Assembly (NCBI GenBank): GCA_048938105.1
Contig: JBHLMN010000011.1
Coordinates: 128,001-192,000, forward strand
Source of the DNA: Promethearchaeota archaeon
GTDB taxonomy: Archaea; Asgardarchaeota; Heimdallarchaeia; Hodarchaeales; Hodarchaeaceae
Direction: 5' to 3'
DNA length: 64,000 nt
The notes under the pieces were generated by a model. That model ran no database searches. It was given only the letters and a program-made list of their open reading frames with translations, and had not been told where the DNA came from. Shown piece after piece: positions 32,503-45,781 of the stretch (positions are counted from its first letter, which is position 1; each line of letters opens with the position of its first letter). The position numbers and the translations under genes were made by a program.

Positions 32503-33072
32503 TCAGGTTTCTATCACTGGATTATATTCTGATTCATCCATTGAAAAAGTCCAAGCTATTGCCTCTTTACATGTTCTAACATGTGGAGGCACACGTAAAA
32601 TGTAAGTTTCTCTAGTGGTTGAATCTTGAACCTTAACTACCATTAATGGCTCTTGATCTTTCCTAATTCGTAAAAGTAATAACTCTGATTCCCCATCAGT
32701 GTGTATTATAGTTCCACCTAACTCCTCAACGAATCTTTTATAACCAAAATTTGATAGAAGGATTCTGCGGATTTCTACATTGCTGCATTTCAGAATATCT
32801 CTGGCTTTCAGCTCTTCCTTAAAGAATAGGAGATAGTCCTTAATAATATTCTGAATCCATTGTTCATCAAATGAAGTACACTTCTTTACGAAAAAGCTTT
32901 TCCAGCTACTAATACGCTTCCCTTTCTTGTCGTACCAATGAACTTTCCCACTTCGTTCTATACCAAAGCTTTCATTTTGCTGAAGCCACAGGACTCCTCG
33001 CCATAAGCGGGATGGTATAAGTGTTTCATTATCTACGAGAGTTTTCAGTGATTCTTTTAGCTTTTTATCCAT
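32503..33072 (-). CDS. DUF6745 domain protein
   Basis: NVEIRR...GY.RF, EPL..VKV.DSTT...Y.LRVPP...TC.EAIAWTF...EY.P..ET; ATG at 33072 directly follows the upstream stop. Confidence 0.85.
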   Translation of the reverse strand: MDKKLKESLKTLVDNETLIPSRLWRGVLWLQQNESFGIERSGKVHWYDKKGKRISSWKSFFVKKCTSFDEQWIQNIIKDYLLFFKEELKARDILKCSNVEIRRILLSNFGYKRFVEELGGTIIHTDGESELLLLRIRKDQEPLMVVKVQDSTTRETYILRVPPHVRTCKEAIAWTFSMDESEYNPVIET

Positions 33073-33073
33073 T

Positions 33074-33382
33074 CTAATCCATAACCCATTGTGACGATTC
33101 GGTTTCTGGATCATATTCTCGCTGACGAATCACCTCATAGATTCCAGGTTCTAAATCGATCGTTGCATGTTCTTCATGAACCAAAGTCGCTCCTTTGCTG
33201 GCTTTAACAAATAACTGATCACCTGATGTTTGCGACCAAAACCTGAATACTTCTCCGTCCATAATTCTATGAGCGTGGCCAGTAGCTTCTCCTTCAAGAA
33301 TTACATCACTTTTAACACTCTTAGCTCGTTTTGGCAGTGATTTGACTTTTTTTAGTAAAAGATCTCCTTGTCTGACTATCAA
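33074..33382 (-). CDS. Conserved RQGD...GE.TGHAH...HEEH...RQREY protein (usual partner of DUF6745)
   Basis: RQGDL, LEGEATGHAH, LVHEEHATIDLEPGIYEVIRQREYDP...VMD. Confidence 0.85.
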   Translation of the reverse strand: MIVRQGDLLLKKVKSLPKRAKSVKSDVILEGEATGHAHRIMDGEVFRFWSQTSGDQLFVKASKGATLVHEEHATIDLEPGIYEVIRQREYDPETESSQWVMD

Positions 33383-38130: not shown

Positions 38131-39770
38131 ATGAAGTTGAAATTCTTGTTTTTCAGAAGGTCTATGGGAAAGTTCTTTGTATTATTCATCTTGGTTACAC
38201 TATTCCATCCATGGATAATACAAAAATCATTAAATAGCACACCCAAGACTGTACAACAAGGTAAATTATCTAAATTCAATATTATAAACAAAATGAACAA
38301 TGTAGAGGACGACCTTGAGAATGTTCTTTCTATCACTCGTCATGATCCAGCAACAGTCCAAGAAGGGTTGACAATATTCGGTGTGTGGCGAGTAACGAGT
38401 CCTACTGTTGAAAATTTTTTGGACTCAATGATTATCATTACAGATATGGAAGGAAATGTTAAATCTTCACTACAATTCCCCCATATGAAGGGATTGTCTG
38501 GGATCCAGAATTCATCAATTCCACCACTTTTATCTATATTCTGACATCGAACAGCTTACAACTTTATAATATTCAAACAAAAAAGAGCGAAATCCTTCCT
38601 ATCTCTCCTGGTCATCATGATGTGGAATATAATCCTATTTCTGACACATTTCTTACTGTATATTTCACACATTATGGATACTATGAGGATAAACCCTTAC
38701 TATTTGATGATATATATGAACATGATCGTGATGGGAATGTAATTTGGTTCTGGAACAGCAGCAGCCACATCCCATTCAATGAAACAGAATTTACTAAAGA
38801 AGCGTTTCTTGAACGATTCCAATGGACTCACGCTAATACTATCTTCTGGGACATTGAGGATCATGCTATCTACTATAATTGTAGACACTTAGATACTTTT
38901 TATAAAATAGATTACCCCAGTGGTGAGATTCTTTGGTCAGCTGGAAGATTAGGTAATTTAAGGCTGTTTGACAAACAGGGGAACGAAAAACAGTGTTTAT
39001 TCTATCATAGTCACGCTGTGGAAGTAATTAGCCCCAACCATTACATTATTTTTGATAATGATTATTTTAATATCACTAGGGAAAACCCTAGAGAAGCAAC
39101 AGGTGTTTCTCGTATGATCGAAGTCGTTGTTAATGAAGAATCAAAGACAATGAACGAAACATGGTCGTGGTCAGCGCCAACAGATTATTTTGGGGAAGTT
39201 TGGGGAGATGCTGACCGTTTGCCAAATGGAAATCGGTTGGGAACTTTTGGTGTTCCTGACCATCCTGCTTATATTACTGAAGTAGACCCACAGGACAATA
39301 TCGTCTGGGAACTAGCACTTGAACAAGCTAAATGGGATTATTTAGGAATTTATAATGCTGATCGGTTTTTTGAAGCTCCTTTAGTAGAAGTGGATCAAAC
39401 AGAGTACACAACTACCCCAGATGATGATTTAGTGTTCCAAGTTAAAGTATGGGATACTTTTAACACTAGGATAACTAGAAAAGGAACATTACGTATAGAA
39501 GAGAAGGATAAGGTCTTAAAATCAATTGAATTCGAATTTCAACCCCACTGGCAAGAAACTCTCATTAATGTAAGTATCTTTGATCTTGGAAATAATGAAC
39601 GAACATTAACTCTTTCCATAACGAATGAAGATGACCTCAGTACTAAGATACCCATCGTAGTCAATGGAGGATCAGAGGATGCATCATTCGCGATTAAGAC
39701 TGTTGTAGTTGGTCTTATTTCTTTAGCTTCAATACAAATAATCAGAAGAAAGAAAAAAATAACTTATTAA
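38131..39770 (+). pseudogene. Aryl-sulfate sulfotransferase (ASST) with C-terminal TM anchor, split by a +1 frameshift
   Basis: Removing one C from the C5 run at 38478-38482 joins ...LQF to PYEGIVWDPEFINSTT...GHHDVEYNP. ASST motifs HHD, THAN, R.LDT, HSH, FDN, WGDADRLPNGN. May be a sequencing error. Confidence 0.8.
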
Positions 39771-41044: not shown

Positions 41045-42172
41045 TTAAGTACTCCTTATTTCAATATGTTTTACTTTTTCGATCCAAAAAGAGCCATGAA
41101 AGTTTTTTGCCACAATGCGAAGCCCAATCTCTGTTGATGTCATAATTATTGCTCTATCGTTATCGATTTCTTCTCCACTGAATTCTACTTGGTAACCATC
41201 AGAAGCACTTAATTGAACTATAAAATGCTCAGTTTTAGGTTGAGCACGCTCTACGATAAAATATAAGGGGACTCCAGTATAGTTCTTTGTGGGAATATAG
41301 GTGACATCACCAGTTAAATTCGCTTCAACTGTTATCTGTAAATCAAGGAAATCTGAATGATAGTAAGTGTATGGATTAAATACATCTCCAGATACTTCTG
41401 CAGAATAACGGTTTTGAACGGTTAGGAAATAAAACACACCAATTTCGATTAGTACTATGACTATAATTATAATTATTCTCAGTATTTGGATTTGTTTCAG
41501 CTGATTAGGATCAGTCGGAGTCTTTCTCCAATTCAATATTGAAGATCTTTCAAAAAGTTTCCAAGTAGAGATTGACAAGAGCCCTCCAAGAAAAAAACCT
41601 GAAATAAAGCTTAAAAAACCGATAAAAACGATAAATAATAGCGGAATTTGAAAATTAAAGAAGAGTATCTGCTGAATAATGACATTTGATAAGCTAGAAA
41701 AACCTGCAGCTAAAGATAGAACAAATTTGTTTTGTGTTGATAAAAATACGATGATTAAAATCTCAATAATAAGTCCTTGAGTTCCAGATAAGACCACTAC
41801 TAATATTCCATGAGCACTACCAGTAAAAAATTCAACAAATCCTTTTAAAATCCCTGCCATTAATGCGGTACCAACTTTTTGTTTTGTTAAGAGATAAATT
41901 AAGACTATCCAAAAAACATGCATCCCACTCAAAATCTGTCCCCCCCCAAACGGAAGTCCAACTATATGATTGAGTAAATTCCCTAAATATCCGATAAATG
42001 TGCTAGAAATTCCTCCCAATGCACTGAATAAGGCTATGATTACTAAATCACTCGTCTCATAATAACGAGTTGATTTTTTTCTCTTCTTTACTAGGTTCCC
42101 GTTGATCCAAGGGATTTTTGTTGTATGAAGGGGTTCAGGGATCTGTATTTTGGCTTCTTTCTCTTCTTCCAT
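41045..42172 (-). CDS. ECF transporter S component fused to a C-terminal molybdopterin-oxidoreductase-like domain
   Basis: DLVIIALFSALGG...GGQILSG.HVFW...K.GTAL..G...G.VEF..G..HG...QGLIIE (YkoE/CbrT-like S unit), an extra TM, then V.GDV.NP...YTGVPL...ASDGY...LRIVA...FWIEKV..IEI. Confidence 0.8.
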   Translation of the reverse strand: MEEEKEAKIQIPEPLHTTKIPWINGNLVKKRKKSTRYYETSDLVIIALFSALGGISSTFIGYLGNLLNHIVGLPFGGGQILSGMHVFWIVLIYLLTKQKVGTALMAGILKGFVEFFTGSAHGILVVVLSGTQGLIIEILIIVFLSTQNKFVLSLAAGFSSLSNVIIQQILFFNFQIPLLFIVFIGFLSFISGFFLGGLLSISTWKLFERSSILNWRKTPTDPNQLKQIQILRIIIIIVIVLIEIGVFYFLTVQNRYSAEVSGDVFNPYTYYHSDFLDLQITVEANLTGDVTYIPTKNYTGVPLYFIVERAQPKTEHFIVQLSASDGYQVEFSGEEIDNDRAIIMTSTEIGLRIVAKNFHGSFWIEKVKHIEIRST

Positions 42173-42174
42173 TT

Positions 42175-43758
42175 TTATCGTTCCAAAACTCGTAAAGATT
42201 TAACATATTTCACCCATCGATACCCCGCTGAAGGCCAAATATGGAACCCTTCACCCAATGGAGAGGTGGCTTGACAATCATCATTACTGTACGCGCCATC
42301 AGGAGCCAGAAATACTATTCGAAAGCCATCAATCCATTCAGGCACAAAAGTTTCATTGTAAGAATAGGCAAGTATCATATCACCTTGAATAAATTTCCAA
42401 GAATTATTAGGAAAGATTACTGGGTAACTAAAATTCTGAATTAACCCATCCCACGCTTCGATCTCTAAGATATGATTAGGGGTCATTCCTCCCACAGTCT
42501 CCAAGAGATCTCCTATTAAAACCCCCTTATATTCACCATAAGATCGCCAATTGCCATATTGGTTTTGAAAACTGCAATACCCACTCATTAAGCGAAATTC
42601 TAATTGTAAATCGGATATAGAAATAATATTGACAGATTGATTTTTAATTATCTCAATATCTGTAAGAGAGATTTTCTTTTTAAATTCTATTGGATTAACT
42701 GACCAATTTAACCATTTATTATCAAAGGTTATCTCAAGATAGTGATGAAACCCTCCCAATTCTTTAGATTCATGTAAAGCAGCCCCACCACCACCAGATG
42801 TTATAAAATGTATATTTTCACGAATAGTATAATTATAGATATGAATATGACCAGAAAGAACAATTTTGACATTATTTTGGGTAAAAATCTTTAATAATAA
42901 CTCACTTTGAGAATTATTTAAGAAATCATGCTCTTTTGAAGCACGAGGGTCGAATAAGGGAGTATGTGTAAAGATTATTTTTGGATATGTTGAGTAAATA
43001 TTAAAAGATTCTAAGAGAAAATCCATAGTAGACGATGTTAAAGATCCTGTTGATGAATCAAGCGAAATAAAGAGGAAATTTCCATATTTAAAACAATAAT
43101 TTGATTCACCAAAATGTTTTTGATATTGGATGCTAGAATTTTCGAATTTTATATCATGATTTCCAGGGGTAAAGAATACAGGCGCTGTAGAATTTCTCGT
43201 TATCTGTTGAACCTCATGAAATTGAAGAGGAGTGCCAAATGAAGTTATATCACCCAAATGAACGAGAAAAGAATAAGAATCATTGTTTAATTGACGGGTT
43301 AAGGTTTTATATTTATGATAAAACCCTTGAGTGTCCCCTATAGCAGCTATCTTAAAAATGTCGTCCTGAATATCATTTTTTAGCACAATTTCTCGCTCTT
43401 GCTGAGGTTTACATAAAATTTTTAACGAAAGAAATGTAAAATTATAAACAGAATATTTTTCTTGATCCAACAATCCGTAAATTGTAAGATGTTCCGTTTG
43501 AATATTAGAAATTGATATATTTAGTGTTTTTTTTCTTTCTATTTTTATAGAACTGAACGATAAATTAAATCCTTGGTTCCAAATAAGAGCCTCTCTCGAG
43601 GTGGGATTATAATCTAATAATGTACCGCCATTGATTTTAAATGGAAAATCAGTTGAATATTCTGAATCTTCCCAGAGAAGAAATAAAAAGAGAAAAGAAA
43701 GACTAAGAGATAAGATAAGTATTACTGAAAGACTTAATCCTATTACCCTTTTATTCAC
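42175..43758 (-). CDS. Membrane-anchored metallophosphoesterase fused to a molybdopterin-oxidoreductase-like domain
   Basis: N-terminal TM; calcineurin-like motifs GDTQ, HLGDI, PGNHD, THTP, GHIH; C-domain YKGV.I.DLL...AWDG...MILAY..N...GFRIVF...RWVKYV. Confidence 0.85.
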   Translation of the reverse strand: MNKRVIGLSLSVILILSLSLSFLFLFLLWEDSEYSTDFPFKINGGTLLDYNPTSREALIWNQGFNLSFSSIKIERKKTLNISISNIQTEHLTIYGLLDQEKYSVYNFTFLSLKILCKPQQEREIVLKNDIQDDIFKIAAIGDTQGFYHKYKTLTRQLNNDSYSFLVHLGDITSFGTPLQFHEVQQITRNSTAPVFFTPGNHDIKFENSSIQYQKHFGESNYCFKYGNFLFISLDSSTGSLTSSTMDFLLESFNIYSTYPKIIFTHTPLFDPRASKEHDFLNNSQSELLLKIFTQNNVKIVLSGHIHIYNYTIRENIHFITSGGGGAALHESKELGGFHHYLEITFDNKWLNWSVNPIEFKKKISLTDIEIIKNQSVNIISISDLQLEFRLMSGYCSFQNQYGNWRSYGEYKGVLIGDLLETVGGMTPNHILEIEAWDGLIQNFSYPVIFPNNSWKFIQGDMILAYSYNETFVPEWIDGFRIVFLAPDGAYSNDDCQATSPLGEGFHIWPSAGYRWVKYVKSLRVLER

Positions 43759-43801
43759 TTGTCATACTCCCAAGGCTCTAATTTTACTATTATTACCCCA
43801 C

Positions 43802-45781
43802 CTAATTGGGAATGATAAGTATCTCTGCTATCGCATAGATCATCCTACTTGACTTAAATCCTAATCCGATCAAACGGAGTGGGGTATGCTTCTCATCTAA
43901 TAAAACACCGTTTCGCCTATAAGCAAGGATGATAGATTTATTATATGCAATCATTTGGCTGTCAAAATTTTTTGAATAGCCATCTTGAGCTTTAACCTGA
44001 ACTATATATCCTGTTGAAGCTAAATCGTCATTAAAATCATAATTAAACCCAGAATAGTGCGTTCCGCTGTCACCTCCGTCAAAAATGGCAACTATGACAT
44101 ATAATGGGATCCCAACATAGGTTACATCCTTATCATCTTCAATAATTGTCAGAGAAGATTTGTGATGTTTACAACTGACTATAGTCAAATATTCTTCAGC
44201 AGTTAATACAGCTGTATAACTTGAATTAATTTGGTTTGTTAAACTAATTGTCCAATGGAGAGTTGTTGTCGGGATATCGGTGATGATAATTGATTCTATT
44301 TTACTGATCCATTGATCCATTGAAAGATCTGGTGATACCAACCTTACAGGAAACTCATCCTCGGGTAATGGGAGATTGTTTTTAACATGCGCTAAAATTA
44401 AGGAATTATTTCGAGTTGTAATTGATGATGGAAGAGTTAAATTCGTTCCATCTGATGAAAAAATAGTAACATTGTATCCTTGAGCTGCCAGAGAGTCATT
44501 GAATGTATAATGTTCACTACCATCATCTCCATCAACCATAGAGAGAGCGATCCACAAAGGCATACCTTCATAGGTAATTATTCGGCCAGCCTCAGAGTAA
44601 GTATGACTAACATTGTGAACATGATCTCCACAATAAACCACAGAATTGAAATCATCAAGACCAATGGATGTCTGAGAGACACCAGATAAAGTTATTGACC
44701 AGTCCGTAATACCTGATCCTATTATTATTGTTTTAACATATTTTACCCAAAAATGACCCTCAGAAATAGGCCCTCCGGGACCAAGATAACCCATTCTAAA
44801 AGGTCCACCATAATCGCTTTGAAGCGGTTCCCCATTTTCTTCATAAATTAATGTTAATGTGAGGTTTTCAAGTCCCCCATGGCCAATTTCAACTCCATTT
44901 TCGTCGAAAAGGGGAACATTTCCAAAGATTTGCGATTTAGTAAAAGTAAAATTATAAAAATCAATAGGTACAACCTTCATGGAAAAATTAGATGAAAAAT
45001 CAAGTAAGAGATCTAAAGCAGCAGTCATGTTTACTCCTTTGTAATTGTATGGTCCAACAATAACCCCTGTTGTCTTCAAAAATGCCCCCGAAGCCTCGAT
45101 AGAAGGAAGAAGTTGTAATTGAGAATGAGACAATGTAAATTTTTCATTAGGAGTTTCAAATGTGACTTTTTCATTTTCTCTGATAAATTCCAGTTTAGTA
45201 ACCCATTTTGCCCAACGAACACTGGCAGCTGCATCCTTGTATTCTAATGATGCTGTTTTCCGTTGATCTTCCGTAGAATATTCCTCATCTGAGGGAAGAA
45301 AAACTATTCGTAACCCATCTTCCCATTTAGGGACTTTTGTATCGTTGAATTCATATGCTAAAATCATCTTTCCTTGAATTCCTTCCCATTCTGACGAGGG
45401 GTAAATGTTTTCATAAGTGAAGATTTGTGTATAATCATCTTCAGAAGTGACAGTCAATATATCACCCTGTTGAATTCCACCGACTTCTTCGGCTAAATCA
45501 GAGATTGGAACACCTCTATAAACCCCATTATGACGCCAATTCCCAAATGAATTCTGACATTTACTTGTTCCACTAATAGATGTTAACTCTTTTATATCTG
45601 TGAGAGTGAATTCTTTAGATTCCCCTGAGACTCCCAGTACTGTCAATCCAATTTCCTGGGTCATTTCTGGTTCAGTACAACCAGAAAGCAATCCAATCAA
45701 TAGAAGCAAAAAACTGATTATTATAATAGACTTAAACCTCAAACTAGGTTCACCTATCATTTTCCTACTAAAAATTAACAC
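43802..45781 (-). CDS. Lipoprotein with four tandem molybdopterin-oxidoreductase (sulfite oxidase)-like domains
   Basis: Lipobox LLSGC (Cys35; alternative start ATG 45760). Four ~150-aa units each with Y.G[VMI].[LIM], xxD[GDF][YT], [IL][LT]A/IY..N, [PG][LFV]R[LIM], W.K.V-type end. Confidence 0.8.
   Translation of the reverse strand: MLIFSRKMIGEPSLRFKSIIIISFLLLLIGLLSGCTEPEMTQEIGLTVLGVSGESKEFTLTDIKELTSISGTSKCQNSFGNWRHNGVYRGVPISDLAEEVGGIQQGDILTVTSEDDYTQIFTYENIYPSSEWEGIQGKMILAYEFNDTKVPKWEDGLRIVFLPSDEEYSTEDQRKTASLEYKDAAASVRWAKWVTKLEFIRENEKVTFETPNEKFTLSHSQLQLLPSIEASGAFLKTTGVIVGPYNYKGVNMTAALDLLLDFSSNFSMKVVPIDFYNFTFTKSQIFGNVPLFDENGVEIGHGGLENLTLTLIYEENGEPLQSDYGGPFRMGYLGPGGPISEGHFWVKYVKTIIIGSGITDWSITLSGVSQTSIGLDDFNSVVYCGDHVHNVSHTYSEAGRIITYEGMPLWIALSMVDGDDGSEHYTFNDSLAAQGYNVTIFSSDGTNLTLPSSITTRNNSLILAHVKNNLPLPEDEFPVRLVSPDLSMDQWISKIESIIITDIPTTTLHWTISLTNQINSSYTAVLTAEEYLTIVSCKHHKSSLTIIEDDKDVTYVGIPLYVIVAIFDGGDSGTHYSGFNYDFNDDLASTGYIVQVKAQDGYSKNFDSQMIAYNKSIILAYRRNGVLLDEKHTPLRLIGLGFKSSRMIYAIAEILIIPN

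Follow-up and report, generated by a model that had tools for sequence, protein, structure and literature searches.

A candidate ECF-type importer of the tungsten/molybdenum cofactor, with a SUOX-fold capture module, in a Hodarchaeaceae genome

Introduction

A three-gene locus from an archaeon of the family Hodarchaeaceae combines a lipoprotein, an anchored phosphoesterase and a transporter S component, all of which carry domains of the SUOX/PruR fold. The locus is a real observation; its role as the capture half of a cofactor importer is a strong, unproven candidate. The original prediction, made from the sequence alone, read the genes as a system to scavenge and import the Mo/W cofactor, and this reading is supported by the fold of the domains, the co-occurrence with AORs, the exclusion of moaC and moeA, and a riboswitch in related loci. 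From genomic evidence, we hold with good confidence that the system would be a group I ECF transporter for metal-loaded W- or Mo-molybdopterin, or its dephospho form. In the literature searched (subscription papers fell outside its scope), we found no prokaryotic Moco importer.

Anatomy of the locus

The genes lie within a window of 64 kb, the whole stretch of DNA that was analysed. As first described, they are closely linked on the minus strand, and the ORF coordinates agree with gaps of 43 bp (lipoprotein/phosphoesterase) and 2 bp (phosphoesterase/S fusion). The features are as follows:

43802..45781, minus strand: lipoprotein with four SUOX/PruR-fold domains without the Cys ligand (659 aa; lipobox LSGC)
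45179..45652, minus strand: lipoprotein domain L1 (aa 44-201; 42% identity with the phosphoesterase-fused domain)
44714..45172, minus strand: lipoprotein domain L2 (aa 204-356)
44276..44704, minus strand: lipoprotein domain L3 (aa 360-502)
43805..44254, minus strand: lipoprotein domain L4 (aa 510-659; duplicate of L3, 30%)
42175..43758, minus strand: anchored calcineurin-like metallophosphoesterase (527 aa; catalytic part aa ~134-340)
42178-42645, minus strand: SUOX-like domain at the phosphoesterase C-terminus (aa 372-527)
41045..42172, minus strand: YkoE-fold ECF S component fusion (375 aa; S part aa 37-214)
aa 222-253 of the S fusion: extra TM helix between the S part and the SUOX-like domain
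41048-41410, minus strand: SUOX-like domain at the S-fusion C-terminus (aa 255-375)

The likely true start of the lipoprotein ORF is the TTG at 45742, giving 646 aa. Pfam finds four PF00174 (Oxidored_molyb) stretches in the lipoprotein (E 2e-19), Metallophos and a weak PF00174 (E 0.1) in the phosphoesterase gene, and PF09819 (YkoE-type S component), above cut-off, in the S fusion; the sixth, S-fused domain has no Pfam match. The proposed split of six domains (4 + 1 + 1) over the three proteins is borne out by Pfam, structure models and a family profile, which recovers exactly six domains in three genes, a partly circular result since the same domains seeded the profile. The description of one ~150-aa domain occurring six times holds for the copy number; the copies are divergent (about 20-42% identity). 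In addition, the motif set ascribed to all six is incomplete in the S-fused copy, which is shorter (about 120 aa) and has no LAYxxNG. The nearest homologues come from Ca. Hodarchaeota/Hodarchaeales.

All three proteins are predicted to face outwards, in line with the extracytoplasmic placement first suggested. The signals are the lipobox, the single N-terminal membrane anchor of the phosphoesterase, the seventh TM helix of the S fusion and an excess of N-glycosylation sequons. There are 13 sequons in the phosphoesterase (~2.5 per 100 aa) and 12 in the lipoprotein (~1.8), a three- to five-fold excess over soluble ORFs (0.54 per 100 aa). No ATPase or T gene and no riboswitch were found inside the 64-kb window, nor any excess of promoters or terminators there.

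A SUOX-like fold with no conserved metal-ligand cysteine

Searches with single sequences (the S protein against the genome, L1 by phmmer against the PDB) returned no relatives, and profiles were required. A profile from all six domain types finds SorA at E 2.5e-12 and PruR at E 3e-7. The AlphaFold model of the S fusion matches, over its last 120 residues, SorA (2blf; Z 15.2, rmsd 2.0, 123 aligned) and PruR (7rkb; Z 13.5), and the lipoprotein structure model also matches SUOX enzymes and PruR. Structure comparison and profile therefore agree with the SUOX-like fold originally proposed; for the phosphoesterase-fused domain, the fold is assigned via its identity to L1 and not via a model of its own. 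A complex prediction for the S fusion with L1-L2 scored 0.29 against a mark of 0.32.

In SUOX enzymes, the Arg of PLRL and the Lys of WVK contact the MPT phosphate. The family has both motifs in common with these enzymes (SorA 2BLF, SoxC, MsrP/YedY and sulfite oxidase), together with Y/WxGVxL, DG, LAY and the Moco-binding fold itself. Unlike them, it has no conserved Mo-ligand Cys, no dimerisation domain and no redox partner gene. In the Mo-ligand zone, 27 of 466 family domains (6%) carry a Cys, so the position is not conserved; the two canonical SUOX enzymes of the same genome have it. As for other residues, C75 of L1 is Tyr or Phe in homologues, L3 has a conserved C384/H389 pair upstream of the hairpin and away from the SUOX Mo-ligand position, and L4 has C535 and H538 and lacks the conserved Trp. 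This pterin-site Trp is kept in five of the six domains.

The closest known non-enzymatic member of the fold, PruR (7KOM, 7KOS, 7KP2, 7RKB; PMC11194511), was overlooked in the original prediction. It is the sole characterised Cys-less SUOX-fold protein, and it binds simple pterins, not Moco, through Asn102, Tyr104 and Trp160 (PMC11194511). Like PruR, the domains described here are (by prediction) secreted, non-enzymatic and Cys-less, and they share its Asn/Asp, Tyr and Trp pterin-stacking positions (the family xDGY aligns with PruR NDY, Asp replacing Asn). PruR, however, consists of one domain, acts in signalling together with DcpA-type sensors and binds non-Moco pterins, whereas these domains stand in tandem or are fused to transport or hydrolase proteins; no DcpA-type sensor gene was found in the homologous loci examined. 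They also keep PLRL and WVK as in SorA, where PruR has GPFWL, and in the sequence alignment they have no PW motif and a longer hairpin.

The S component and its relation to YkoE

The S-fusion model has the six-helix ECF-S fold and matches YkoE (5edl) at Z 23.4. The thiamine pocket of YkoE comprises Tyr46, Trp49, Glu77, Gln95 and Asp131 (PMC5037267). By sequence alignment, the family keeps two of these five, Glu77 and Gln95, which are the residues reading the pyrimidine edge; Trp49 is replaced by an invariant His, Tyr46 by Ser or Ala, and Asp131 by Gln. This pattern would suit another ligand that presents an aminopyrimidine edge, for example a pterin.

Like YkoEDC, the group I thiamine/HMP importer of Bacillus subtilis (5EDL; PMC5037267), the system has the S fold with Glu77/Gln95, a fused double ATPase, a dedicated T gene and riboswitch control. 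Unlike YkoEDC, its seventh TM helix bears a SUOX-fold domain that faces outwards in the predicted topology, its module includes predicted surface capture proteins and a phosphoesterase, its riboswitch is of the Moco/Wco type in place of TPP, and it tracks the loss of moa, not of thiC. The system thus departs from YkoE, from the SUOX enzymes and from PruR on some of the defining features of each. It would act in the manner of the vitamin-type group I ECF importers, the class to which it belongs, with transport itself predicted from its components.

The rest of the transporter

GTDB genomes hold 383 relatives of the S fusion. Among the best 80 of these 383 loci, the operon typically runs from one or more surface proteins, of 2-8 domains, through the phosphoesterase, the S fusion and the double ATPase to T; the domain-S fusion is found in nearly all, the ATPase adjoins S in most, and the T component is present in 64. 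The original prediction missed the dedicated ATPase and T genes. Their orthologues in this genome are on contig C36 (C36:8866-11126), unlinked from the S gene, with 69% and 76% identity to congeners and ECF_ATPase models above cut-off. The C36 site, between a nucleotidyltransferase gene and thyX, is the ancestral one: congeners carrying the system have the whole operon there, and in the two congeners with moaC the same site is empty. The window therefore contains the capture part of a group I ECF module, displaced from the rest. The neighbouring nucleotidyltransferase and a 171-aa gene (Hodarchaeales) were rejected as parts of the system, being present in MoaC-positive congeners too.

Cofactor users and cofactor makers

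The genome (a MAG of 5.85 Mb, 99% complete, 7% contaminated) has about 17 genes for Mo/W-cofactor enzymes. There are 13 AORs, two clusters of XDH type, accompanied by a MocA-like cytidylyltransferase (score 137 bits, under the cut-off of 186), and two membrane-anchored, Cys-containing SUOX-family enzymes; no DMSOR-family enzyme was found. MoaA, MoaC, MoaE and MoeA have no match in the genome, and tblastn with the MoeA1, MoeA2, MoaC, MoaB and MoaE of one congener gave nothing, while the neighbour genes of these queries match at 45-74%. TupA/WtpA queries likewise had no match; a PBP_like_2 hit on contig C27, considered as TupA, proved to be PstS. By its gene content, the organism is apparently a Mo/W-cofactor auxotroph. 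With MoaA/C/E, MoeA and TupA/WtpA all unmatched, known biochemistry implies that it would need the pterin with the metal already inserted, and the loss of the insertase together with the lack of a TupA/WtpA match points to a metal-loaded imported species.

The same pattern recurs across 200 Asgard genomes (at least 85% complete), all of them MAGs and, being related, not independent of one another. The S fusion is carried by 54 (52 full length, two cut by contig ends), each with at least four AORs. MoaC is found in 0/54 carriers versus 85/146 others, and MoeA in 1/54 (on a 3-kb contig) versus 86/146. Because Fisher tests inflate significance among kin genomes, weight was placed on within-genus splits: the division between S fusion and MoaC is repeated inside five genera, a recurrence that speaks against one event passed on by descent. 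At the family level, the S fusion occurs in 37 and MoaC in 17 others of the 56 genomes of one family; the corresponding numbers are six and one of seven in a second, and nine and two of 13 in the host family, Hodarchaeaceae. ThiC is absent from all three of these families (0/13, 0/56 and 0/7), in carriers and non-carriers alike. In a sample of the class Thermoplasmata, MoaC occurs in four of 27 carriers (one copy broken) versus 82 of 124 others. Archaeal operons of this type, in keeping with the distribution originally foreseen, co-occur with AORs and largely exclude moaC and moeA, with few exceptions.

Riboswitches and neighbouring genes

Seven Bacillota loci have a Moco riboswitch (RF01055) directly upstream of the operon (53-69 bits; cut-off 36), at a distance of 86-183 nt in the six with a clear start; two pairs are close relatives, leaving about five independent cases. 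These relatives have 34-39% identity to the locus described here. All seven riboswitches have no P3 stem, a variant tied to the tungsten cofactor (Regulski et al., PMC2408646). The 19 loci scanned contained no riboswitch for TPP, cobalamin (B12) or FMN. Co-occurrence with another cofactor pathway had been named at the outset as grounds for abandoning the Mo/W reading; the loci instead point to Moco/Wco. Among 12 Bacillota carriers, 11 retain MoaC, a pattern consistent with salvage under product repression. Genes associated with the domain also favour the Mo/W reading: four Thorarchaeia operons enclose a gene of the DMSOR family, and one archaeal protein has two such domains joined to ModA/WtpA in a modABC-ModE operon.

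The phosphoesterase and a linked kinase

The metal-ligand motifs of the phosphoesterase are GDTQG, GD, GNHD, H and GHIH, and the five motifs (GD[ST]QG, GD, GNHD, H, GHxH) are intact in about 50 loci. The first has Gln where His is expected, and the nearest solved relative, a weak match, is GpdQ. The enzyme is optional: of 81 loci examined, 50 have it. Also optional is an APH-like kinase, found next to 34 of the best 80 of the 383 loci, in three phyla; in one Asgard family, 36 of the 37 carriers have it after the S fusion, and its Lokiarchaeia relatives adjoin tupABC-moa clusters. This linkage suggests that the cofactor is dephosphorylated and then rephosphorylated. No orthologue of the kinase was found in this genome (best match 28 bits) or in any of the 14 genomes of the host family. 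Since this genome has a MocA-like gene and no such kinase, either its phosphoesterase would take off a nucleotide, with phosphorylated cofactor imported, or an unrelated kinase would act.

Proposed mechanism and alternative readings

In the mechanism we propose, the SUOX-fold domains of the lipoprotein would bind and protect cofactor shed from the enzymes of other cells. The anchored phosphoesterase, its substrate held in its own SUOX-fold domain, would trim the nucleotide (GMP/CMP) or the terminal phosphate, and the S-fused domain would concentrate the cofactor above the S-component pocket. The double ATPase and T encoded on C36, orthologous components of the system, would power import. Inside the cell, the cofactor would mature the 13 AORs and also the XDH-family enzymes, the latter by way of the MocA-like cytidylyltransferase that the genome has kept. 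In lineages whose operon is accompanied by the APH-like kinase, that enzyme would put the phosphate back, a step for which the host family has no such kinase. The main cargo is more likely to be the tungsten form, given the AORs and the P3-less riboswitch, and the XDH and SUOX enzymes of the genome suggest that Mo is carried too. Free Moco is unstable, which was counted against uptake of the cofactor. Also counted against it were the genomic or predicted nature of all the support, the binding of simple pterins and not Moco by PruR, the riboswitch being one of relatives and not of this window, the optional status of phosphoesterase and kinase, and the Asgard genomes that have AORs with neither MoaC nor the S fusion.

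An unlikely alternative is that the cargo is metal-free, damaged or oxidised molybdopterin, or a tungstate/molybdate complex, which other enzymes complete inside the cell. It would suit the unconserved Mo-ligand Cys (27/466), the lack of a detected oxyanion transporter in the genome, and the archaeal fusion of two such domains to ModA/WtpA. MoeA is lost with MoaC, however, so that known enzymes could not mature a metal-free pterin, and the metal alone is no substitute for missing pterin synthesis.

Less likely still is a PruR-like uptake of simple pterins (neopterin phosphates, or folate/methanopterin precursors), on which the phosphoesterase and kinase would act. PruR ranks among the top structural neighbours, the family retains its pterin-binding positions, and neopterin phosphates suit extracellular dephosphorylation. 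Yet this leaves both the within-genus mutual exclusion with moaC/moeA and the Moco/Wco riboswitch without explanation, and the SUOX-type PLRL/WVK motifs and longer hairpin stand against the GPFWL and shorter hairpin of PruR. We give a similarly small chance to the view that the domains are extracytoplasmic chaperones or redox proteins for exported Moco enzymes, with the ECF part moving other cargo or exporting. The two anchored, Cys-containing SUOX enzymes of the genome and the conserved Cys/His of L3/L4 would be in keeping with such a role; it would still leave the cytoplasmic AORs without cofactor, and it sits poorly with an S fusion in nearly all of the best 80 loci, ATPase and T adjoining. 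Finally, an ordinary YkoEDC-type thiamine/HMP importer with an accessory phosphatase and kinase is very improbable: the YkoE fold and Pfam family, the kept Glu77 and Gln95 and the carriers without ThiC agree with it, but ThiC is equally absent from non-carriers of the three split families, Trp49, Tyr46 and Asp131 are replaced, and the scanned loci yielded Moco riboswitches and none for TPP.

Implications

Import of the metal-loaded cofactor would give the Asgard archaea a parallel to an animal. The uptake of Moco from the diet by C. elegans shows that the cofactor, when bound to protein, is stable and can be obtained from another organism (bioRxiv 10.1101/2020.10.08.332338); the worm case is eukaryotic and works without an ECF system. 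Somewhat less firmly than for the transporter itself, we consider it probable that many Hodarchaeales, Thorarchaeia and Hermodarchaeota and some Thermoplasmata are auxotrophs that import the intact metal-pterin of their neighbours by a dedicated ECF system, with trimming at the surface and mostly with a dephospho-molybdopterin kinase. If so, the W/Mo cofactor would be a cross-fed vitamin, like B12, and a new substrate class for ECF transporters. A large family whose members at present bear the annotation of molybdopterin oxidoreductases would gain a function, and the culture of Asgard archaea a candidate missing nutrient. This locus adds the split module, a predicted capture set of six domains and a lineage that has MocA without the kinase. 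A defined importer with its binding domains and trimming/kinase pair would make Moco transport directly testable, and stable Moco-binding domains may be of use in cofactor delivery.

Other uptake routes probably exist, since about 58 Asgard genomes have AORs and neither MoaC nor the S fusion. In 23 of these, from two families, the same Cys-less domain occurs in other contexts, and in one of the two families it adjoins an SBP-dependent ABC operon.

Asgard family f3

Asgard family f3, from the same class as the source genome, includes AOR-rich, MoaC-less genomes without the S fusion (loci L108, L109, L111, L112 and L113). These loci encode an anchored Cys-less SUOX-fold protein with one or two domains, whose gene is flanked by an ABC exporter pair on one side and by a divergent operon for an SBP, a 1060-aa permease and an ATPase on the other; the domain was not found in the two MoaC-positive f3 members. 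Possibly, the SUOX-fold protein and the SBP/permease/ATPase operon constitute a second, ABC-type cofactor importer.

SUOX-fold proteins in other settings

At L001:8001-13685, the first gene of a modABC-ModE operon encodes a fusion in which a ModA/WtpA protein carries two SUOX-fold domains, both Cys-less.

At a Bacillota locus (L004:4222-9765), genes for SLH/Fn3 surface proteins that also contain this domain precede the S-fusion operon, as does a MotA/ExbB and DUF2149 pair.

In the window's lipoprotein (43805-44704), C384/H389 of the third SUOX-like domain and C535/H538 of the fourth are kept in homologues, and could form a Cys2His2 metal site or a disulfide linking both domains.

The source genome keeps two Cys-containing SUOX enzymes although it lacks Moco synthesis; both are apparently exported:

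L094:4527-5330, membrane-anchored
L095:6049-7086, membrane-anchored

APH-like kinase in Lokiarchaeia

Two Lokiarchaeia loci carry the kinase, a candidate dephospho-molybdopterin repair kinase, beside tupABC-moaC-moaA-moaD-moaE-moeA-moaB-moeA:

L121:13767-14600, APH-like kinase
L122:5734-6567, APH-like kinase

Other S components and window genes

An S-only paralogue of the S fusion, present in several congeners too, is followed downstream by genes for an M6-type protease and for a RuBisCO-family protein resembling form IV:

L086:8789-9478 (G000, contig C14), S component without SUOX-fold domain

Anoxynatronum has a further Moco riboswitch (L081:15260-16040); the gene under its control, which precedes one of the XDH family, encodes an ECF S component of another type (PF12822).

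Elsewhere in the window, an arylsulfotransferase-like gene (38131-39770) appears split into two ORFs of 137 and 382 aa, and a gene pair (32503-33382) encodes a QGD/HxH protein of 102 aa together with a partner of 203 aa that has a DUF6745-like motif at its end.
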